From positions 16,913 through 31,659 of the forward strand of contig CAZEBC010000025.1 of the NCBI GenBank assembly GCA_964510165.1: a stretch of DNA of 14,747 nucleotides. Direction: 5' to 3'. A program made the position numbers and the translations under genes. This document shows, one piece after another, positions 4,402 through 13,667 of the stretch. Under the pieces are notes generated by a model. That model did not search any database. It saw only the letters and a list, made by a program, of their open reading frames with translations, and was not told the DNA's origin. Origin of the DNA: an uncultured bacterium (lineage in GTDB: Bacteria > Abyssobacteria > SURF-5). How positions within the stretch are numbered: the first letter of the stretch is position 1; each line of letters opens with the position of its first letter.

Positions 4402-5859
4402 ATGCGTCGGACCAAGATAGTAGCGACAATCGGGCCAAGTTCGAGCGATGAGGACGCGCTCCGCCGGATACTCGCGGCGGGCATGGACGCGGCCCGGCTC
4501 AACTTCTCTCATGGGACGCATGAGAGCCACAAGCGCAGCTACGACCTCATCCGCAAGCTGGCATCCGAACTCGACACGCCGGTCGCCATCATCGCAGACC
4601 TGCAAGGCCCGAAAATCCGGACCGGCGAGCTGGCGGGCGAGCCGCTGCGTCTGAAAAAGGGTGGCGAACTGGTCATCACCACGCGTCCGATGAAGGGCCA
4701 CGACGGCATCATCTCAACCACATACGGGCGGCTTCACAAGGATGTCGAACCGGGCGACAGAGTTCTGCTCGATGACGGCGCGATGGAAGCCCGCGTTACG
4801 AAGGTCGAGGGCCGCGACATTCATTGCCAGGTGGCGTGGGGCGGCACGCTCGGCGCTCACAAGGGGATCAACCTGCCGGAGGTCAAGATATCGGAACATG
4901 CGCCGACGCGCAAGGATTTGGAGGACGCCCGGTTTGCGACCTCGCTCGGGGTGGATTATCTGGCGATGAGCTTTGTGCGCCGGGCGGACGACATAGCTCG
5001 CCTCAAGAAGTATCTGAGGCGGCACGGCGCGGACACGCCTGTCATCGCCAAGATCGAGAAGCCGGAAGCGCTTGAGAACATAGATGCGATAATCAAGGCG
5101 TCCGACGGCATCATGATTGCGCGGGGCGACCTTGGCGTTGAGATGCCGCCGGAGAAAGTGCCGCAGATACAGAAGGACCTGATTGCGAGGTGCATCGAAG
5201 CGGGCAGGCCGGTCATCACCGCCACTCAGATGCTTGAGTCCATGATAGAACGCTCGACGCCGACGCGGGCCGAGGCGTCGGACGTGGTCAACGCCATTTA
5301 CGACGGAACCGGCGCAGTCATGCTCTCGGGCGAGACGGCCATAGGGAAATACCCGGTCAATGCGGTCAGGATGATGGCGCGCATCGCGGAAGAGGCCGAC
5401 ACCTACGTGGCGGAGGAGCAGAAGAAGGAGTTTCGGCACCGACAGGTGATTGACAGCTTCGAGGACGCGATCGGGCAGGCAACGCAGACCACAGCACGCC
5501 ATTTGCCGACCCGGCTGATAGTGTGCTTCACGTCGTCCGGGTTCACGGCGTTACAGGTGTCGAGCTATCGGCCGTCGGTCCCGATAATCGCGGCCACGCA
5601 TTCCTGCGATTTGCCGCCGCGCATGAACCTGTACTGGGGAGTGCACCCGATCTGCGTGGAGAAGGCCAGCACCGTTGATGAGATGATCGCCCGGGTGGAA
5701 GATGAACTGCTCGATCGGAGAATGGTAAAGCCGGGTGACAGCATAATCATCACCGCCGGCTATCCGCTGGCCGTTCCGGGTACTACCAACATGATGCAAT
5801 TGGTGCGCGTGGGCCGGCACGGGTCGGCGCACCGACCGACAAGGAGGAAGCGGAGATAA
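4402..5859 (+). CDS. pyk: Pyruvate kinase
   Basis: 485 aa from ATG 4402 (MRRTKIVATIGPSS). Motifs ARLNFSHG, DLQGPKIRTG, KGINLP, IAKIEK, DGIMIARGDLGVE, ITATQMLESM, PTRAEASDV, VMLSGETA, C-terminal GTTN. The ORF-track start at 4324 is the -35 hexamer, not the real start. Confidence 0.97.
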   Translation: MRRTKIVATIGPSSSDEDALRRILAAGMDAARLNFSHGTHESHKRSYDLIRKLASELDTPVAIIADLQGPKIRTGELAGEPLRLKKGGELVITTRPMKGHDGIISTTYGRLHKDVEPGDRVLLDDGAMEARVTKVEGRDIHCQVAWGGTLGAHKGINLPEVKISEHAPTRKDLEDARFATSLGVDYLAMSFVRRADDIARLKKYLRRHGADTPVIAKIEKPEALENIDAIIKASDGIMIARGDLGVEMPPEKVPQIQKDLIARCIEAGRPVITATQMLESMIERSTPTRAEASDVVNAIYDGTGAVMLSGETAIGKYPVNAVRMMARIAEEADTYVAEEQKKEFRHRQVIDSFEDAIGQATQTTARHLPTRLIVCFTSSGFTALQVSSYRPSVPIIAATHSCDLPPRMNLYWGVHPICVEKASTVDEMIARVEDELLDRRMVKPGDSIIITAGYPLAVPGTTNMMQLVRVGRHGSAHRPTRRKRR

Positions 5860-7457
5860 TGGCGCAGGTACGCGAATTGTTCCTCGATTACTGCAATGAT
5901 TTTCAGAGGCTCCGTCAATTCTTCCGGTATGACCCGCGCGCGCTTCCCGCCGCCATCAGCGAGCTTCGCGGCACGCAGCAGCGGCATTTCAATGAAGACC
6001 ATCTCAACGAGATAAAGCTTTACAACAAGCGGATGGATTGCGGCGAGGAGACGCTTCGCAACATTGACAAGCTCGGCAAGAACGGCACGCTCGCGGTCGT
6101 CACGGGCCAGCAGCCGGGCATCTTCACGGGGCCGCTCTACACGATCTACAAGACTCTCACGGCGATTAAGCTCGCGAAGCACATCAGCGCCACGTTCGAG
6201 GTCGAGGCAGTTCCCGTGTTCTGGAACGCGTCTGAGGACCACGATTTTGAAGAAGTGCGGCACGTCGAGTTCATCAACCGCGATGACCGCGTCATAAGCC
6301 TGCTATACGAACCGCAGGCCGACATCGAGCGGAAATCCATTTTCGACATCCCGCTTGAGCCGTCTCTCGGTTTTCTGATTGACCTCATGGCCGGGGACAC
6401 GAGCGAGAGCGAGTTCAAGTCGTTCCTCATCGATCTGTTGAGGAATTCGCTCGGCCGCTGTTACTCGCTTGCCGATTGGTTTTCAAACCTGATGCAGGCA
6501 TTGTTCGGGGAATACGGGCTTATCATCCTTGACGCGCATCTGCCGCCCTGCCGCCAGTTGGCGCGGCCGGTAATCGGGCGCGAGATCAAGATGCCGACCC
6601 GCTCGTCCCGGCTGATTAACGAGACGGGCGCCCAGCTTCGCGCGCTTGGGTATCATCAACAGATAGAGCGTCAGCCCGACGACGTGAACTTCTTCTTCTA
6701 CGCACAAGGAAGAAGGAACAAAGTGCGCTTCAGGCAGGGCAACTTCGTGGTGGACAGCATCGGCCTGCAATACGACCAGACCGAGATGCTCGACATGCTG
6801 GCGGAGGAACCGCAGCGGTTCAGCCCGAGCGCGGCGCTGAGGCCGCTTGTGCAGGACCATATCCTGCCGACCGCCGCTTACGTTGGCGGCCCCGGCGAGA
6901 TATCGTACTTCGCGCAGATGAGAAACGTATATTCGTTCTTCGACCTGGTGATGCCCGTCATATTTCCGAGGGCGCGCGTGACGCTAGTCGAGGCGCGAAT
7001 GGCGAAAATCCTGGAGCGCTACGGACTGCACGTAAATGATGCGAACAAGAGCCGGAAAGACCTGCTCCAGACGGTGCTTTCACAGAAACTGACCAGTCCG
7101 GTCATCCAATCGTGCGACCGCAAACTCGAGGTGATCCAGGTGGTCCTCGACGAGTTCAGGCGCGAGGTGGGCGAGGTTGACCCGACGCTGGTGGAACCCG
7201 TGGACAAGCTGAAGCGCAAGATCGGTTACGAGATGGACAAGCTGCGGGACCGGCTGGCGCAATCGCAGGACCAGGACTTCGAGGTGGCGGAGCAGCAGGT
7301 GGACAAGTTGCGGGCGCACCTGTTCCCCGAGGGCAAGGAGCAGGAGCGCGTGCTCAACATATTCCCCTACCTCTTTCAACATGGCGTTCAATTGATAGCA
7401 ATTCTCGAGAAGAAGCTCGACATTATGAGTTTTGAGAGGAACGTCATCTATGTCTGA
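5859..7457 (+). CDS. bshC: Bacillithiol biosynthesis cysteine-adding enzyme BshC
   Basis: 532 aa. Motifs VVTGQQPGIFTGPLYTIYK, VFWNASEDHDFEEV, RFSPSAALRPLVQD, LPTAAYVGGPGEISYFAQ, C-terminal coiled coil and PEGKEQER. TAATG overlap with pyk; AGGAGG at 5842-5847. Confidence 0.95.
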   Translation: MAQVRELFLDYCNDFQRLRQFFRYDPRALPAAISELRGTQQRHFNEDHLNEIKLYNKRMDCGEETLRNIDKLGKNGTLAVVTGQQPGIFTGPLYTIYKTLTAIKLAKHISATFEVEAVPVFWNASEDHDFEEVRHVEFINRDDRVISLLYEPQADIERKSIFDIPLEPSLGFLIDLMAGDTSESEFKSFLIDLLRNSLGRCYSLADWFSNLMQALFGEYGLIILDAHLPPCRQLARPVIGREIKMPTRSSRLINETGAQLRALGYHQQIERQPDDVNFFFYAQGRRNKVRFRQGNFVVDSIGLQYDQTEMLDMLAEEPQRFSPSAALRPLVQDHILPTAAYVGGPGEISYFAQMRNVYSFFDLVMPVIFPRARVTLVEARMAKILERYGLHVNDANKSRKDLLQTVLSQKLTSPVIQSCDRKLEVIQVVLDEFRREVGEVDPTLVEPVDKLKRKIGYEMDKLRDRLAQSQDQDFEVAEQQVDKLRAHLFPEGKEQERVLNIFPYLFQHGVQLIAILEKKLDIMSFERNVIYV

Positions 7458-8169
7458 GAATGTGCTCGACGTGCTCGCTTTCGGGGCACATCCGGACGAC
7501 GTGGACATGACCTCGGGCGGATTGCTGTGCCGCATGGTTGACAGCGGGCTTCGCGTCGGCATCGTTGACCTGACTCGCGGCGAACTCGGCACGCGCGGCA
7601 CTCCGGAGATTCGCACCCAGGAAGCGCAGGCGGCGGCCAGAATCCTCGGTGTCAGAGTGCGGGAATGCCTTGACATGCCGGACGCGGGCGTCCGCAACAC
7701 GCTGGGGGCGCGACTCGCGGTTATCGAGGTGTTGCGGAAGTATCGGCCTCCTCTCATCATCATCCCCTACTGGGAATGCAATCATCCCGACCACGCCAAC
7801 ACGGGCGTGCTTGTGAAGGAGGCGGCATACCTGGCCGGATTGAACAAGATCGAGACGGGCCAGGAGCGGTTTCGTCCGAAGCGAGTCATCCATTACATGA
7901 CCCACTACCGCTTCGAGCCGTCCTTCATTGTGCCCATTGACGAATACTTCGAGCGCAAGATGGCGGCGGTAAGAGCACACGCCTCGCAATTTTACCGACC
8001 GGACGCGGCGGAACCGGAGACCCGCATCTCGCAGCCGGGCTTTCTTGACCTGCTGGCATTGAGAGACCGGACCTACGGCTCGATGATAGACGCGATGTAC
8101 GGCGAGCCTTACTATATGCGCGGCATGCTCCGGATCGAAAACCCCTTTGACCTGTGGTGTCGCACATGA
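7450..8169 (+). CDS. bshB1: N-acetylglucosaminyl-malate deacetylase BshB1 (PIG-L family)
   Basis: 239 aa from ATG 7450 (RBS gagagga at 7434-7440; 8-nt overlap with bshC). Motifs DVLAFGAHPDD, DLTRGELGTRGTPEIR, HPDH, AHASQF, YGEPY. Lies between bshC and bshA. Confidence 0.93.
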   Translation: MSENVLDVLAFGAHPDDVDMTSGGLLCRMVDSGLRVGIVDLTRGELGTRGTPEIRTQEAQAAARILGVRVRECLDMPDAGVRNTLGARLAVIEVLRKYRPPLIIIPYWECNHPDHANTGVLVKEAAYLAGLNKIETGQERFRPKRVIHYMTHYRFEPSFIVPIDEYFERKMAAVRAHASQFYRPDAAEPETRISQPGFLDLLALRDRTYGSMIDAMYGEPYYMRGMLRIENPFDLWCRT

Positions 8170-9260
8170 GGATCGGCATCACCTGCCACGCCACGGTCGG
8201 GGGGAGCGGCGCGATAGCGGTCGGGCTCGGGAAACTGCTGGCGGCCGCCGGACATGAGGTTCACTTTATCTGTCATGAGATGCCGTTCGGGCTGACGGGC
8301 CATCGCCACCCTCGCATTACCGTCCACGAAGTCGAGGCCACCCAATACCCGCCGCTGAAATACCCACCTTATGCGATGGCGCTCGCCGTCAAGATGGCTG
8401 CGGTCGCGAGAGAGGCCCGCCTTGACCTGTTGCATGTGCACTACGCGATCCCGCACGCGTTGAGCGCCTATCTCGCTCGCGAGATGAGCGCGCCTGACCA
8501 CCTGAAGATAGTGTGCACGCTGCATGGAACCGACATCACGCTCGTGGGAGCGGACCCCTCGTATCGGCCCTTGGTGAAGTTTTGCATCGAGGCGTGCGAC
8601 GCGGTCACCTCGGTCTCGCATTGGCTGACGGACACGGTGAAGCATTCGTTCGGGCTCAGCCGCGAAGTGCACACCATTTACAACTTTGTGGACACAAATG
8701 AGTACATGCGAATCGAGGCTCGCGTGAACGACATCCCGGTCATCGTTCACATGTCGAATTTCCGACCCGTCAAGAGGACTCTCGACGTGGTGAGAGTGTT
8801 CAAGCGCGTGCGGGAACGACGGAAGGCCCATCTCCTGATGGTCGGTGACGGACCCGACAGGGAGCGGGCATTTGAGTTGGCGCAGTCGCTGGGGATTGCG
8901 GAGGATGTCGAGTTTGCGGGAGTCACCGAGAGCGCAGTCGACATCCTGTCGTGTGCCGACGTGTTTCTCTTGCCGAGCGAGATGGAGAGTTTCGGACTGG
9001 CCGCGCTCGAGGCAATGGCCTGCGAAACGCCGGTGGTCGCAACAAACGTGGGCGGCTTGAGCGAAGTAGTCGAGGACGGCCGGACCGGCTATCTGCTGCC
9101 GCTTGGCGATACCGAATCCATGGCCTTGCGCATACTCGAGATAATCGAGAATCCGGAACTCAAGCGGCGTCTGGGTCAGCGTGGCCGCGCACTCGCACAG
9201 GAGAAATTCAGTCCACAGGCGGCGCTTCAGGCATACTTGAAAGTCTACGGTTTCCCTTAA
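8166..9260 (+). CDS. bshA: N-acetyl-alpha-D-glucosaminyl L-malate synthase BshA (GT4)
   Basis: 364 aa from ATG 8166 (ATGA overlap with the bshB1 stop). Motifs MRIGITC..VGGSG, LLHVHYAIPHA, TLHGTDITLVG, HMSNFRPVKR, ESFGLAALEAMAC. Confidence 0.94.
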   Translation: MRIGITCHATVGGSGAIAVGLGKLLAAAGHEVHFICHEMPFGLTGHRHPRITVHEVEATQYPPLKYPPYAMALAVKMAAVAREARLDLLHVHYAIPHALSAYLAREMSAPDHLKIVCTLHGTDITLVGADPSYRPLVKFCIEACDAVTSVSHWLTDTVKHSFGLSREVHTIYNFVDTNEYMRIEARVNDIPVIVHMSNFRPVKRTLDVVRVFKRVRERRKAHLLMVGDGPDRERAFELAQSLGIAEDVEFAGVTESAVDILSCADVFLLPSEMESFGLAALEAMACETPVVATNVGGLSEVVEDGRTGYLLPLGDTESMALRILEIIENPELKRRLGQRGRALAQEKFSPQAALQAYLKVYGFP

Positions 9261-9334: not shown

Positions 9335-10339
9335 TCAGCGGACAAGATACTCCGCTATCTGCACCGCGTTGAGCGCCGCGCCTTTCCTGAGGTTATCCGA
9401 CACGATCCACATGTTGAGGCCGTGCGGAACCGTGTCGTCGCGGCGGATGCGGCCGACAAAGGTTTCGTCGAGACCCTCGCAATTGATGGCCAACGGATAC
9501 AGCGCCTTCGAGGGGTCATCCACCACTTTGACGCCCGGCGCTTTCGAGAGGATTTGCCGTGCGCGTTCCGGGGTCATCTCCGACTCGAACTCGAGGTTGA
9601 CCGATTCCGAATGGCCGCGATAGACGGGCACGCGCACCGTGGTGGCGCTCACCTTGATCGAGTCGTCCTCCATTATCTTCTTGGTCTCGTTGACCATCTT
9701 CATCTCTTCTTTGGTGTAGCCGTTCTCGAGGAACACGTCGATGTGCGGCAGCGCATTGAACGCGATCTGGTGCGGATACACTCTCGGCAGATATTGGCCG
9801 CCGTTCATGAGCGCGCGGGTCTGCTCGCGCAGTTCGATGATCGCCTTCATGCCGGTGCCTGAGACCGATTGATAGGTTGAGACGACCACGCGCTTGATCC
9901 GCGCCGCGTCGTGAAGCGGCTTGAGCGCGACCACCATCTGAATCGTGGAGCAGTTCGGGTTGGCGATTATCCCCTTGTGCCTCTTGATCGCATGCGGATT
10001 GACCTCGGGGACCACGAGCGGCACGTCGGGCTCCATGCGGAACGCGCTGGTATTGTCCACTACGACACAGCCCCGCTTGATCGCCTCAGGCACATATTGC
10101 TTGCTGACGGTCGCTCCGGGTGAGGAGAGGATTATCTCGACGCCGTTCAGGCGCTCCGGCTTCAGTTCCTCCACCTTTATCTTCTCGCCATGGAACAGGA
10201 ACTCCTTGCCGACGGAACGTTGCGACGCTAAAAGCTTGAGGTTCCCGACGGGGAAATTGCGCTGCTCGACGATCTTTCGCATCTCTTCGCCGACCGCGCC
10301 AGTCGCGCCCACGATTGCTACGTTGTATTGTCTTGACAT
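9335..10339 (-). CDS. asd: Aspartate-semialdehyde dehydrogenase
   Basis: 334 aa. Motifs VAIVGATGAVG, VDNTSAFRM, PLVVPEVN, IIANPNCSTIQ (catalytic Cys), STYQSVSGTG, RVPVYRGHSE, DNLRKGAALNAVQIAE. AAAGGAG RBS upstream. Confidence 0.97.
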   Translation of the reverse strand: MSRQYNVAIVGATGAVGEEMRKIVEQRNFPVGNLKLLASQRSVGKEFLFHGEKIKVEELKPERLNGVEIILSSPGATVSKQYVPEAIKRGCVVVDNTSAFRMEPDVPLVVPEVNPHAIKRHKGIIANPNCSTIQMVVALKPLHDAARIKRVVVSTYQSVSGTGMKAIIELREQTRALMNGGQYLPRVYPHQIAFNALPHIDVFLENGYTKEEMKMVNETKKIMEDDSIKVSATTVRVPVYRGHSESVNLEFESEMTPERARQILSKAPGVKVVDDPSKALYPLAINCEGLDETFVGRIRRDDTVPHGLNMWIVSDNLRKGAALNAVQIAEYLVR

Positions 10340-10363: not shown

Positions 10364-11416
10364 CTATTCAGCGATGTACTTCGCCACAAGATCGCCGACC
10401 TGGCTTGTCGAGCAGCCCATCTGGCCGGCGGCCATGCCTTTCAAATTTCCGATGGTCCTGATGACCGCTTCCTCAATCTTTGCAGCGGCCTCCTTCTCGC
10501 CTAGGAAATCGAGCATCATCTGACACGCGCAGATCGCGGCCAGCGGATTTATGACTCCTTTGCCCGTGTACTTGGGGGCCGAGCCGCCGATCGGCTCGAA
10601 CATGGACGTGCCCGACGGGTTGATGTTGCCGCCCGCCGCGATGCCCATGCCACCCTGTATCATCGCGCCGAGGTCGGTGATGATGTCGCCGAACATGTTA
10701 TCGGTCACGATCACGTCGAACCACTCGGGATTCTTCACCATCCACATGCAGATGGCGTCCACGTGCGCGTAATCGGTCTCGATGTCGGGATATTCCTTCG
10801 CGACCTCCCTGAACGCGCGTTCCCACAGGTCGAACGCGTACGTGAGCACGTTCGTCTTGCCGCACAGCGTAAGCTTCTTTCTTTTCGCTCGCGCGCGACA
10901 GAACTCGAACGCGTAGCGCAGGCAGCGCTCGACGCCCTTGCGCGTGTTAACCGATTCCTGGATCGCGACTTCGTCGGGCGTGCCCTTCCGAAGAAAACCG
11001 CCCGCGCCCGCATACAGGCCCTCGGTGTTCTCGCGAATCACCACGAAATCTATGTCCTTGGGCTTTTTCTTTCTCACCGGCGTCTCGACGCCGGGGAATA
11101 ACTTCACGGGACGCAGATTTATGTATTGGTCGAGCGCAAACCGCAGTCTCAGCAGAATTCCCTGCTCGAGCACGCCCGGCTTGACGTTCGGATGCCCGAT
11201 GGCGCCGAGATAGATCGCCTGAAACTCTCGAAGCTGTTCAATCGCGTCCTCCGGCAGAGTTTCGCCCGTCTTCAGATATCGCTCGCCGCCGAAATCGAAT
11301 GTGGTCGTCTCGTATTTGAACCCAAACTTCTTCGAGGCGGCCTTGAGCACCTTGAGCCCCTCCGCCACCACCTCCGGCCCGGTTCCGTCACCGGGTATCA
11401 CTGCGATCGTGTGCAT
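10364..11416 (-). CDS. leuB: 3-isopropylmalate dehydrogenase
   Basis: 350 aa. Motifs [34 protein letters not shown] (IPMDH-type E..LL..R), [32 protein letters not shown]. Lies downstream of leuD and upstream of asd. Confidence 0.88.
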
Positions 11417-11495
11417 TAATCGTCCCCAGAATTCTCTGTTATTTGGCTGTAGTCTAAAGAATCCACAACGGAATCCTCGAACACGGCTTTGTCCT

Positions 11496-11619
11496 AAATC
11501 CCCTTAACCCCTTTACAAAGAGGGAACCGAGCGGCAGTTCCACTCTCCCCGCTCAGAAGAAGGGGAACCAAGCGGCAGTGCAATCTCCCCCTTTAGAAAA
11601 GGGGGATTAAGGGGGATTT
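11496..11619. repeat. Composite palindromic repeat array (AAATCCCCCTAACCCCCTTT-n-AAAGGGGGA family)
   Basis: Left end aaatccccttaacccctttacaaagagggaacc (11496-11528); two internal 40-41 bp units sharing gggaaccragcggcagt..ctcccc (11522-11550, 11563-11590); inverted right end tctccccctttagaaaagggggattaagggggattt (11584-11619). Confidence 0.9.
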
Positions 11620-11968
11620 GACTTCAGAAGCCGCCACAGTGTCTCGACCACTCCTTCGAGATTTTCGAAGACTTCTCTGTCCGAGAATCGGATAACCCTC
11701 AATCCAACCCTTGCGAGGTATTCGTCTCTTGCTTTATCCTTCTCCCGTCCTTGTTCCGTATAATGCTGACCTCCATCCAACTCGACGATGAGTTCCGCCC
11801 TTGCACAAAAAAATCAACTATATAGTTCCCAAGTATCTTCTGGCGGTAGAACTGGAATCCATCCAATTGCTTGCGCCTTATTCTCGACCAGAGCAGCTTT
11901 TCCGCTTCGGTCATATTGTTTCGGAGATTCCTCGATAGTTGTTTCAATCTGGGATTATAAGGAATCAT
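11607..11968 (-). pseudogene. DUF559/Vsr-like endonuclease gene split by a -1 frameshift (pseudogene, recoded gene or sequencing error)
   Basis: Frame 1: MIPYNPRLKQLSRNLRNNMTEAEKLLWSRIRRKQLDGFQFYRQKILGNYIVDFF. One extra T in the T7 run (A7 at 11807-11813) continues CARAELIVELDGGQHYTEQGREKDKARDEYLARVGLRVIRFSDREVFENLEGVVETLWRLLKSNPP to TAA at 11609-11607. The restored protein is 120 aa with typical DUF559 motifs. Confidence 0.9.
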
Positions 11969-11997
11969 GGCAATATCCCGTATCCGTTCGGCGCCTT

Positions 11998-12032
11998 AAA
12001 TCCCCCTAACCCCCTTCTCCAAAGGGGGAACC
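11998..12032. repeat. Further copy of the same palindromic repeat, upstream of the DUF559 gene
   Basis: aaatccccctaacccccttctccaaagggggaacc is a direct copy of 11496-11528 and is inverted relative to 11584-11619. Confidence 0.9.
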
Positions 12033-12079
12033 AACCACAAGCGTTTTCCAGGAAATACGAGCACGATCTCCCATAAGAA

Positions 12080-12601
12080 TCACCTATTCACCTTTCCCCC
12101 GCTCACCCGCTTGCGCGCGTAATTGATCAACCCGCCCGCGTCTATCAACTCCTGCATGAATGGCGGAATCGGATTCGCCCGATATTCCTTCCCGGCGCTC
12201 AAATTCCGTATGATGCCCTTTGAGATATCCACTTCGATCGTGTCGCCGTCCCTGATGCCGTCCACCGCCTCCGGACATTCGAGTATCGGCAGACCCATAT
12301 TGAACGAGTTCCTGTAGAAAATCCGCGCGAAACTCTTCGCGATGACACATGATATCCCGAGCGTCTTGATCGAAATCGGCGCGTGCTCTCGCGACGAGCC
12401 GCAGCCGAAATTGGCGCCCGCCACTATGAAGTCGCCCGCACTCGCCTTATGCACGAACTCGGCGTCCGCGTCCTCCATGCAATGCTGCGCCAGCACCTCG
12501 GGGTCGCTGGACGAGAGATAGCGCGCGGGGATGATGGCGTCGGTGTCAATATTGTCGCCATACTTCCACCCCTTTCCCTTCAGCGCATGTCTTTCCGCCA
12601 T
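12080..12601 (-). CDS. leuD: 3-isopropylmalate dehydratase small subunit
   Basis: 173 aa. Motifs [78 protein letters not shown] at 12615-12610. Confidence 0.93.
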
Positions 12602-12671: not shown

Positions 12672-13667
12672 TCAGTAGCCGACCATCTCCAGCAGCGGTT
12701 TGAGATAGTGGACAAAATACACGGTATAGAACAGATAGATGACGACTATGCCGACTATGACGACGACCACCGGGCCAATCAGCTTCGGGATCGACTCGAG
12801 CACCACCATCGCCTCGTCCTCATAAATATCGGCCACTCGCTCCAGCGACTCCGAGAAGCTGCCGGTCTCTTCGCCCACCGCAAGCACCTCACGGATCATG
12901 GGCGTAATGAACCGCGATTTACTGAGGGCCTCCGCCATGGTGGCGCCCCGCCCGATCGGAGAGGCCGCCTTCATCAGGCTATTTGTCACGACGCGGTTGC
13001 CGGCCACCGCCGCCGCGCGCTCGACGGCCTGCATCATCGGCACCGCGCTCTCAAGCTGCATCGCCAAGGTGCGCGTGAATCTCGCCATCGCCAACTTGAT
13101 CGACACCGACCGCATCAACGGGACCGAAAGCGCCACGCGGTCCCAAATCCCGCGTCCCAACGCGGTGCGCGACAAGAACGACACCGAAAGCCCGAGCGCT
13201 GCAAATGCCGCCACCGTGCCGTACGCGAGCGATTCAGCCGTCGCAATCTTGTCCGAACTGAAGACTATCGTGATCAGGAAAAACACAGCGAACGCAAAGA
13301 ATAGTTGTATAGCGGGATAGATGGAGGCCCTGATGGTGGCCCGCCTCAGCGTCAAACGCGTGTCGAAGTAGTCGGCCAGCCTTGCAAACACCGTCTCCAG
13401 ATGTCCGCTGCTCTCCCCCGCCTGCACCATCTCGACAAAGATGGGCGGGAACCTCCGCGCCCGCGCGCGCAACGCCTCGGAAAGCGTGCTGCCCGCAGCG
13501 ATGTCGTCCCCGATATCCTTGAGCGCCCTCCTCAAGCGTCTGTCCTTCGCCTCCCGCGCAATCACGGGAAACGCCCTCGACAGCGTCAATCCGGCCCCGA
13601 TCGAGACGGCCGCCTGCTTCGAGAAGTTCGCCATCGATTTCAGTGGTATTCGTCCCGCCAATATCAT
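12672..13667 (-). CDS. Type II secretion system F / PilC family inner-membrane platform protein
   Basis: 331 aa with two T2SSF repeats (FPPIFVEMVQAGESSGHLETVFARLADYF...IYP and MIREVLAVGEETGSFSESLERVADIYE), each followed by hydrophobic segments. ATGA overlap with the rluD stop. Confidence 0.9.
   Translation of the reverse strand: MILAGRIPLKSMANFSKQAAVSIGAGLTLSRAFPVIAREAKDRRLRRALKDIGDDIAAGSTLSEALRARARRFPPIFVEMVQAGESSGHLETVFARLADYFDTRLTLRRATIRASIYPAIQLFFAFAVFFLITIVFSSDKIATAESLAYGTVAAFAALGLSVSFLSRTALGRGIWDRVALSVPLMRSVSIKLAMARFTRTLAMQLESAVPMMQAVERAAAVAGNRVVTNSLMKAASPIGRGATMAEALSKSRFITPMIREVLAVGEETGSFSESLERVADIYEDEAMVVLESIPKLIGPVVVVIVGIVVIYLFYTVYFVHYLKPLLEMVGY

Follow-up and report, generated by a model that had tools for sequence, protein, structure and literature searches.

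A 3-isopropylmalate dehydrogenase (IPMDH; LeuB) with Lys-Tyr at the coenzyme site, where NAD-dependent LeuBs carry Asp-Ile, was found in the genome of an uncultured bacterium, and the Lys-Tyr motif marks a large, multi-phylum clade, not one genome. The gene (P0001; 10364..11416, minus strand) lies within a stretch of DNA of 14,747 nucleotides (hereafter the window) and encodes a protein of 350 aa, which was recognized as LeuB and as a member of the Lys-Tyr clade by its family score, fold and residues. From the residue changes described below we infer the coenzyme preference of this enzyme and its physiological role: the window LeuB probably makes efficient use of NADP+, either as the preferred coenzyme or with dual specificity. 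The broader reading, in which a widespread clade of genuine leucine-pathway IPMDHs would have switched naturally to NADP+, is judged from the sequences to have about an even chance of being right.

The coenzyme use of LeuB is a standard example of adaptive constraint, and a natural Lys-Tyr clade makes this constraint directly testable. The usual view of IPMDH as NAD-constrained, to which an earlier note on this DNA had referred, is found in PMC6501885, where it is stated that all IMDHs use NAD and that product inhibition by NADPH makes NADP use by E. coli LeuB maladaptive, which is said to account for what is seen throughout life's history. In a metabolic model published in 2022 (PMC9168515), leuB needs NAD in every condition modelled, and just two oxidoreductases of E. 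coli, leuB being one, are bound to keep their coenzyme. In a full-text literature search, with subscription papers mostly outside its coverage, a natural NADP-type IPMDH was not found to be reported, and the name of the enzyme has zero occurrences in the accessible part of a review of NADPH-generating systems (PMC4518329).

Identity and genomic context of the leuB gene

The identification of the window gene as leuB is based on the family score, the catalytic and substrate-binding residues, the synteny with other leu genes and the absence of any further LeuB candidate from the genome. The whole protein passed the equivalog cut-off of the NCBIfam model NF002898 (PRK03437) with 550.7 bits against 393 (an excess of 158 bits), and four other members of the Lys-Tyr clade scored 523.9–552.8 bits with the same model. 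The Pfam model Iso_dh gave 316.8 bits, and the protein stayed under the cut-offs of the tartrate dehydrogenase model NF006048 (345.6 bits; cut-off 501) and of TIGR00183, which represents NADP-dependent isocitrate dehydrogenases (NADP-IDHs) (147.8 bits; cut-off 567.3). Residues R92, R102, R128, Y135, K187, D220, D244 and D248, which we take to serve catalysis and metal/substrate binding in beta-decarboxylating dehydrogenases, do not vary when the protein is aligned with E. coli LeuB and the three paralogues from the same genome (including IDHs), nor do they in alignment A2.

The substrate-recognition helix (residues 83–92 in the translation; 11141..11170, minus strand) is of the isopropylmalate type (E84, L88, L89). 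E84 is invariant and L88 and L89 are nearly invariant across alignment A2, and the S-x-N motif is absent from the window LeuB, whereas the two IDH-like paralogues of this genome carry RSLN and RSVN in the same helix. The AlphaFold model of the protein (mean pLDDT of 95.2) had as its top Foldseek match the LeuB of M. tuberculosis (Rv2995c, 1w0d; TM 0.91/0.95, 50% identity), which is also the nearest solved structure by sequence (E 4.9e-100) and shares the family model, fold and length class. The helix of the M. tuberculosis enzyme (LERGLLLRLRF) is nearly identical to that of the window LeuB, and the two enzymes share their catalytic Arg, Tyr, Lys and Asp.

In the window, leuB is located between two other genes of the minus strand: leuD, encoding the small subunit of 3-isopropylmalate dehydratase (12080..12601; TIGR02084, 254.1 bits, cut-off 245.85), is placed upstream, beyond a spacer of 663 bp that the earlier note does not mention, and asd, encoding aspartate-semialdehyde dehydrogenase (9335..10339; NF011456, 507.9 bits), 24 bp downstream. 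LeuC is encoded elsewhere in the genome, adjoining ilvBN (TIGR02083, 682 bits, cut-off 610.65), and LeuA (TIGR00973, 724.2 bits) and the citramalate synthase CimA (TIGR00977, 713.2 bits) are encoded on other contigs. Because the genome also encodes CimA, the window LeuB probably oxidises 3-methylmalate for isoleucine synthesis too (the citramalate route). In other organisms with the citramalate pathway, LeuBCD serve this route.

Four Iso_dh genes are present in the assembly, which is 97% complete. Besides the window gene, these encode: (i) a classical NADP-IDH on contig C107 (TIGR00183, 663.3 bits), with a helix motif of the S-x-N type (RSLN or RSVN), (ii) an IDH-like protein of 366 aa, with S-V-N and D-I, adjoining the E2 component of a 2-oxoacid dehydrogenase, and (iii) an archaeal-type protein of 355 aa with D-I on contig C4, under every cut-off. 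As these three are either IDH-like or under the cut-offs, the window gene is the only candidate passing a LeuB model among the four paralogues scored. Thus, the leuB call of the earlier note, together with its description of an isopropylmalate-type helix lacking S-x-N and of a gene set between leuD and asd, was correct.

The genomic context was also compared across the clade. A genome scan (one genome per species) gave at least 595 relatives, 80 loci of which were kept, and the flanks of these 80 genes, up to 5 kb each, were searched with proteins of the window's genome (tblastn, E <= 1e-10, at least half of the query aligned; some loci were short). A leuD homologue was placed directly upstream of leuB at 44 of the 80 loci, leuC was near it at 37 and leuA at 23, asd followed downstream at 38, cimA was near it at 10, and none of these five genes was detected at 21. 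The order leuA-leuC-leuD-leuB-asd recurs in different phyla, a context that argues strongly for a role as LeuB. Taken together, these data identify the window gene, with high confidence, as the leucine-pathway LeuB of this organism.

The coenzyme loop and the other specificity sites

The coenzyme (adenosine-ribose) loop of the window LeuB comprises residues 273–291 of the translation (10544..10600, minus strand) and was aligned with the corresponding regions of E. coli LeuB (EPAGGSAPDIAGKNIANP) and of the NADP-IDH of the same genome (EATHGTAPKYAGQDKVNP). At the aligned loop E. coli LeuB reads GGSAPDIAGKNIANP, with Asp-Ile at D289-I290, and the NADP-IDH reads HGTAPKYAGQDKVNP; the pattern K-Y-x5-(V/I)-N-P is common to the latter and the window LeuB. 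The NAD-type signature Asp-Ile (G-S-A-P-D-I loop; EC 1.1.1.85, acceptor NAD+) is not present in the window protein, where it is replaced by K282-Y283 (10568..10573, minus strand). T. thermophilus IPMDH has Asp278-Ile279 at this loop. Further along the loop, I289 (10550..10552, minus strand) occupies the site of A296 in E. coli LeuB and V351 in IDH. Outside the loop, two more regions were compared, i.e. K228-N229 (10730..10735, minus strand), in which N229 corresponds to D236 of E. coli LeuB, and a clade-specific loop with the conserved K326 (residues 325–336; 10409..10444, minus strand), which was defined by the alignment and the model. The site of N229 is also that of the IDH Arg which reaches the 2'-phosphate from the partner subunit, and the IDH of this genome has Arg there.

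The complete mapping of the specificity sites of E. coli K-12 LeuB onto the window LeuB is D236 to N229, D289 to K282, I290 to Y283, A296 to I289 and R341 to a gap, and the partner of G337 is A330 in one alignment and K326 in another, because the alignment of the last loop is unstable. At the same six sites the NADP-IDH of this genome has R, K, Y, V, Y and R. Consequently, the window LeuB shows the NADP state at three of the six engineered sites (K, Y, and I in place of V), the fourth (236) has lost its acid but carries Asn229, not Arg, and the equivalents of Tyr337 and Arg341 are absent or not alignable. In the AlphaFold model, residues 325–336 form a loop between helices 308–324 and 337–349, at the place where IDH has the helix with Tyr391 and Arg395. 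In summary of the IDH-type 2'-phosphate pocket, the window LeuB has the Lys-Tyr loop, Asn229 beside Lys228 at the partner site and K326 in a loop, and it has no Tyr/Arg helix. Judged by its residues, this pocket appears incomplete in comparison with both IDH and the engineered enzyme.

M. tuberculosis LeuB (1w0d), otherwise so similar, has HGSAPDIAGQGIADP (Asp-Ile) at the coenzyme loop, in contrast to K-Y in the window LeuB, T-D-P in contrast to K-N-P at residues 228–230, and lacks the 5-residue insertion of the 325–336 loop with K326. E. coli-type NADP-IDH belongs to the same superfamily and shares the K-Y-x5-(V/I)-N-P loop, but it differs in its S-x-N helix, in the Arg at the partner-subunit site (Asn229 in the window LeuB) and in its length (416 aa, with extra insertions); where the NADP-IDH of this genome has the Tyr/Arg helix VTYDLAR, the window LeuB has a loop.

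An NADP-dependent E. coli IPMDH, RKYVYR, was reportedly described by Lunzer in 2005 and Miller in 2006, and an engineered NADP-dependent T. thermophilus IPMDH is said to have been obtained by Chen, Greer and Dean in 1996. The changes D->K, I->Y, A->V (Ile here) and the loss of the acid at 236 are common to the engineered enzymes and the window LeuB. The latter, however, is natural, strictly conserved and widespread, has Asn and not Arg at 236, has no Tyr at 337, and possesses Lys228 and Lys326 of its own. The changes listed for NADP-using E. coli LeuB in a table of PMC5817062 are K100R, A229T, D236R, L248M, D289K, I290Y, A296V and G337Y, and the six-site mutant is named RKYVYR in PMC6501885. 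Lys344 and Tyr345 are among the NADP+-binding residues of E. coli IDH, whose helix carries Tyr391 and Arg395 (PMC8623467).

The reading of this loop in the earlier note agrees with these results: its numbering of K282, Y283 and I289 is exact, although its span (10544–10590) covers residues 277–291 and the whole motif extends to 10600, and it had rightly named Asp-Ile for E. coli LeuB, Lys344-Tyr345 for E. coli IDH and D->K, I->Y and A->V as engineering changes.

Conservation, spread and phylogeny of the Lys-Tyr clade

The Lys-Tyr pair was present in all 120 best homologues from the protein database (90%-identity clusters, 76–100% identical to the window LeuB); 114 of them matched the search pattern for the motif, and in the remaining six the deviations are confined to adjacent positions (e.g. 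S-T-P-K-Y, V-V-S-P). Among the 80 loci kept from at least 595 relatives, 79 have K-Y and one has R-Y. Of these, 75 were matched by the pattern (74 K-Y and the R-Y) and five K-Y were recognized by eye; one locus (L094) ends just after K-Y. The supposition of the earlier note that the motif may mark a whole subfamily was thereby borne out.

The clade is found mostly in anaerobic bacteria, representing the phyla Desulfobacterota, Nitrospirota, Omnitrophota, Latescibacteria, Bacillota, Actinomycetota and others. The record titles of the matches listed refer to Desulfobulbus, Thermodesulfobacteria, Syntrophaceae, Smithella, Thermodesulfovibrio and additional Nitrospirae, as well as to Omnitrophota, Latescibacteria, Acidobacteria, Actinomycetota, Armatimonadetes, Planctomycetia, Ignavibacteriales, Desulforudis and one MAG described as 'archaeon'. 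A cultured strain, Desulforudis sp. Tu-874, is among the carriers (L051/L104). In the phylum of the window itself, a match with an identity of 74% or more was obtained in 9 of 11 genomes. An even sample of a sulfate-reducer phylum (that of genome G009) gave matches at E <= 1e-150, with 68–79% identity, in 61 of 121 genomes, and these 61 probably carry K-Y as well, judging from the 80 loci of similar identity.

The Lys-Tyr clade was then compared with 46 Asp-Ile-type LeuBs, namely 38 Bifidobacterium-type sequences (every third match of 330–380 aa, plus P0131) and eight representatives of 50%-identity clusters. K282 and Y283 are present in 120/120 clade members, in contrast to D and I in 46/46 sequences of the Asp-Ile type. 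At position 289, Ile is found in 111 of the 120, whereas Ala is found in all 46. K228 is again invariant in the clade (120/120), and most Asp-Ile-type sequences have Thr or Ser in its place; the corresponding (M/F/L)(V/I)KNP motif is present in all 75 loci searched for it (from the 80 kept of at least 595). K326 is found in 115 of the 120 clade members, while 42 of the 46 Asp-Ile-type sequences have a gap there. When clade-specific sites were defined as those at least 90% conserved in the 120 clade members and shared by at most 5% of the 46 Asp-Ile-type sequences, 36 were obtained. Those located in or close to the coenzyme site include T12, H75, K228, G277, K282, Y283, I289 and K326, some of which would contact the coenzyme, judging from the known structures of the family. 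T12 replaces the Ile of the G-D-G-I-G-P-E loop of other sequences.

Mapping of the K-Y motif on a tree, which the earlier note had proposed, was performed with FastTree on 116 tips: the window LeuB, every fifth top match (24), 77 of 88 near-full-length representatives (after removal of 11 with apparent frameshifts or truncations near the motif), 10 Bifidobacterium LeuBs, E. coli LeuB and the three other paralogues of the window's genome. The tree was rooted on the NADP-IDH of this genome, and its deeper branches are poorly supported. The Lys-Tyr clade is monophyletic (support 0.966), and its sister is the protein P0121 (support 0.996), which has His-Phe at the two sites. The clade and P0121 are nested in a group of 50 tips, nearly all of which have the E-L-L helix and which includes Asp-Ile LeuBs. 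Among the 88 representatives, D-I is present in 41 and K-Y in 10, and the others have K-H, K-R, K-L, R-Y and additional pairs. Other Lys-Tyr lineages are P0122, P0125, P0127, P0132, P0167, P0207, P0208, P0241 and P0251. On the 116-tip tree, 11 parsimony changes are required for a basic residue at site 282, and thus Asp has been lost repeatedly in uncharacterised branches of the superfamily.

Coenzyme use and alternative readings

We propose that the adenosine-ribose pocket was rebuilt in the Lys-Tyr clade along the lines of that in NADP-IDHs. The Asp that engages the 2'- and 3'-hydroxyls of NAD by hydrogen bonding and repels a 2'-phosphate is replaced by Lys282, the adjacent Ile by Tyr283 and the Ala six residues on by Ile289, the acid at the dimer-partner site gives way to Asn229, preceded by the conserved Lys228, and the clade-specific loop adds the conserved Lys326. 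An enzyme of this kind would accept NADP+ efficiently, as its preferred coenzyme or as one of two, and leucine synthesis in the mostly anaerobic carriers would yield NADPH, not NADH. Since the NADP state is found at three engineered sites, the acid is lost at a fourth and the changes are conserved clade-wide, the sequence argues strongly for NADP preference or dual use, and this appears to be the most economical account of the strictly conserved K-Y-x5-(I/V) and the extra lysines nearby.

The NADP-preferring or dual-specificity IPMDH that the earlier note had suggested is therefore favoured by the IDH-type loop, but its pocket shares only three of the six engineered sites and is missing the Tyr/Arg helix. 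The missing helix weakens the NADP reading without excluding it, because an IDH in which Pro replaces Tyr391 is still NADP-dependent, with low affinity (PMC8623467).

The same features can be read in another way, which we consider unlikely. The window LeuB might be an ordinary NAD-dependent LeuB, in which Lys282 and Tyr283 contact the ribose hydroxyls of NAD or the adenine in a clade-specific manner, the likeness to IDH being superficial. In favour of this, the IDH helix with Tyr391 and Arg395 is missing, and site 236 has Asn and not Arg. The sister lineage P0121 is in keeping with it as well, because a pair such as His-Phe suggests that the pocket is plastic and that Lys-Tyr need not mean phosphate binding. 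Moreover, the characterised IPMDHs in the literature examined use NAD (e.g. Nostoc IPMDH, which is NAD-dependent, as is HphB, according to PMC13308025), and NADP use is argued to be selected against in LeuB (PMC6501885 and PMC9168515). However, Asp is present in all 46 related Asp-Ile-type LeuBs and in the enzymes of E. coli and M. tuberculosis, whereas Lys is strictly conserved here (120/120), so the residue marking NAD use is gone; the complete K-Y-x5-(I/V) is the same as in the NADP-IDH of this very genome, and K228 and K326 put further positive charge near the pocket. Should the clade nevertheless use NAD+, the rule by which coenzyme specificity is commonly read from sequence in the superfamily would fail.

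If, as we favour, NADP+ is used, the statement that all IMDHs use NAD would be false, and the constraint seen in E. coli would depend on the redox physiology of the cell, e.g. on NADPH/NADP+ in strict anaerobes. The synthesis of leucine and isoleucine would then be a source of NADPH for these anaerobes, metabolic models of the carriers would assign the wrong coenzyme, and nature would have found a shorter route to NADP than the engineered one.

It is far less probable that the clade comprises NADP-dependent dehydrogenases acting on a different 2-hydroxy acid (3-methylmalate only, tartrate, D-malate or homoisocitrate), with the archaeal-type Asp-Ile paralogue of contig C4 as the true LeuB. In support of this, the tartrate dehydrogenase model TIGR02089 is the second-best family of the window LeuB (392.9 bits), the C4 paralogue, which reads HGSAPDIAGKGIANP, adjoins the large (HacA-family) and small subunits of an aconitase-family enzyme, and the tested leu neighbours are absent at 21 of the 80 loci kept from at least 595. 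The tartrate dehydrogenase score is nevertheless under its cut-off (470.4), whereas that of the LeuB model was exceeded by 158 bits. The tartrate dehydrogenase/decarboxylase of P. putida (3flk; TIGR02089) is the second-best solved relative (E 2.7e-86; fold match with TM 0.95/0.92 and 42% identity) and has the same length class and architecture, but it carries HGSAPDIFGKNIANP and the substrate helix S-L-W-G, while the window LeuB has E-x3-L-L, like M. tuberculosis LeuB, and a leu-operon context with the leuA-leuC-leuD-leuB order repeated across phyla. As regards contig C4, its proteins are under the LeuB, LeuC and LeuD equivalog cut-offs and are encoded beside a PrpB-like lyase. Five other genomes were searched whole: three (G001, G003 and G005) have, beside the clade LeuB, a single further Iso_dh gene, which is IDH-like with S-x-N, leaving no other non-IDH paralogue, and in the remaining two (G002 and G004) a classical IDH is also present, together with a D-I paralogue of 366 aa (under every cut-off). 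Hence, the reading of the window LeuB as a tartrate dehydrogenase was rejected on the cut-off, the substrate helix and the operon context, and that of the C4 paralogue as the true LeuB on the cut-offs and context.

A separate question concerned ketol-acid reductoisomerase (IlvC), as a general pairing of NADP-type LeuB with an NADH-type reductoisomerase was considered. IlvC was searched for in 30 genomes with a clade LeuB, with a match in 27, above the cut-off in 25, and the loop could be read in 24 (the loops of L111 and L117 were outside the pattern). Among these 24 loops, 12 have the usual Arg, 7 are acidic without Arg and 5 are of other types. As no consistent complementary change was found in them, a result that speaks against the NADP reading, the general pairing was rejected, although it may hold in some lineages. 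The IlvC of the window's own genome has the loop QWPGDKAY, without Arg, which resembles the QLEGDAY loop of the NADH-dependent ketol-acid reductoisomerase of Desulfococcus oleovorans (PMC5940873, Table 3).

Basic residues in other branches of the LeuB superfamily

Replacement of the Asp-Ile pair was also found in several further uncharacterised branches of the LeuB/tartrate-dehydrogenase-like superfamily. Among the database proteins homologous to the LeuB of the window, a Lys-Tyr pair occupies this position in P0122, P0125, P0127, P0132, P0167, P0207, P0208, P0241 and P0251, while other basic pairs are present in P0133 and P0248 (both Lys-His), P0200 (Arg-Tyr) and P0222 (Lys-Arg). One of these proteins, P0125, combines Lys-Tyr with an E-L-L helix of the isopropylmalate type.

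Related pathway genes elsewhere in the genome

The ketol-acid reductoisomerase (KARI) of the same genome (locus L109, positions 1328-2398, contig C125) carries the cofactor loop QWPGDKAY, which lacks Arg and contains one Asp. This loop is similar to those of the Desulfococcus oleovorans (QLEGDAY) and Archaeoglobus fulgidus (LPEWDKAT) enzymes, which are listed in Table 3 of PMC5940873 as NADH-using and NADH-preferring, respectively, and by analogy with them the KARI of this genome may prefer NADH. Acidic, Arg-less KARI loops were also identified in other genomes encoding a Lys-Tyr LeuB (7 of 24).

The LeuA reading frame (locus L013, 1283-3586, contig C127) encodes 767 amino acids, and the models of 2-isopropylmalate synthase stop at approximately residue 495. 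The C-terminal ~270 residues lie beyond these models, and the locus ends right after the stop codon.

A second 2-oxoacid-type pathway of this genome is encoded on contig C4 by a same-strand cluster (L004 223-3751 and L012 444-3058). It comprises genes for: (i) an archaeal-type paralogue of the Iso_dh family (355 aa), containing HGSAPDIAGKGIANP and scoring under every NCBIfam cut-off, (ii) a HacA-family large subunit (416 aa), (iii) a LeuD/HacB-like small subunit (173 aa) and (iv) a lyase of 286 aa resembling PrpB, which scores 293 bits with TIGR02317 (cut-off 354). The cluster also includes a 341-aa ORF, for which comparison with NCBIfam gave no matches.

Genes and spacer surrounding leuB

The leuD-leuB spacer (11417-12079, 663 bp) contains an 89-aa ORF on the minus strand (11699-11968), whose similarity to Pfam DUF559 (PF04480, E-value 5e-16) is confined to the first half of that profile (positions 2-50 of 109). 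G-rich units of ~10 nt are placed on both sides of this ORF in a mirror arrangement; beside it, AAGGGGGATT occurs twice (11599-11618), and the 20-nt arms flanking it (11586-11605 and 12010-12029) are 90% complementary. The content of the spacer looks like a decayed insertion cassette.

At 12672-13667, a GspF/PilC-like ORF (331 aa) overlaps by 4 bp the stop codon of the upstream rluD-like gene. Its match begins only at about position 57-65 of models of ~400 residues, and therefore the protein either has a short N-terminus or its start was miscalled.

Bacillithiol synthesis is encoded by a complete operon at 5859-9260, where bshC (TIGR03998, 485.9 bits), bshB1 (TIGR04001, 266.1 bits) and bshA (TIGR03999, 464.1 bits) are arranged head to tail with overlapping ends. 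The nearest named relatives of the genome carrying this operon are Candidatus Abyssubacteria.
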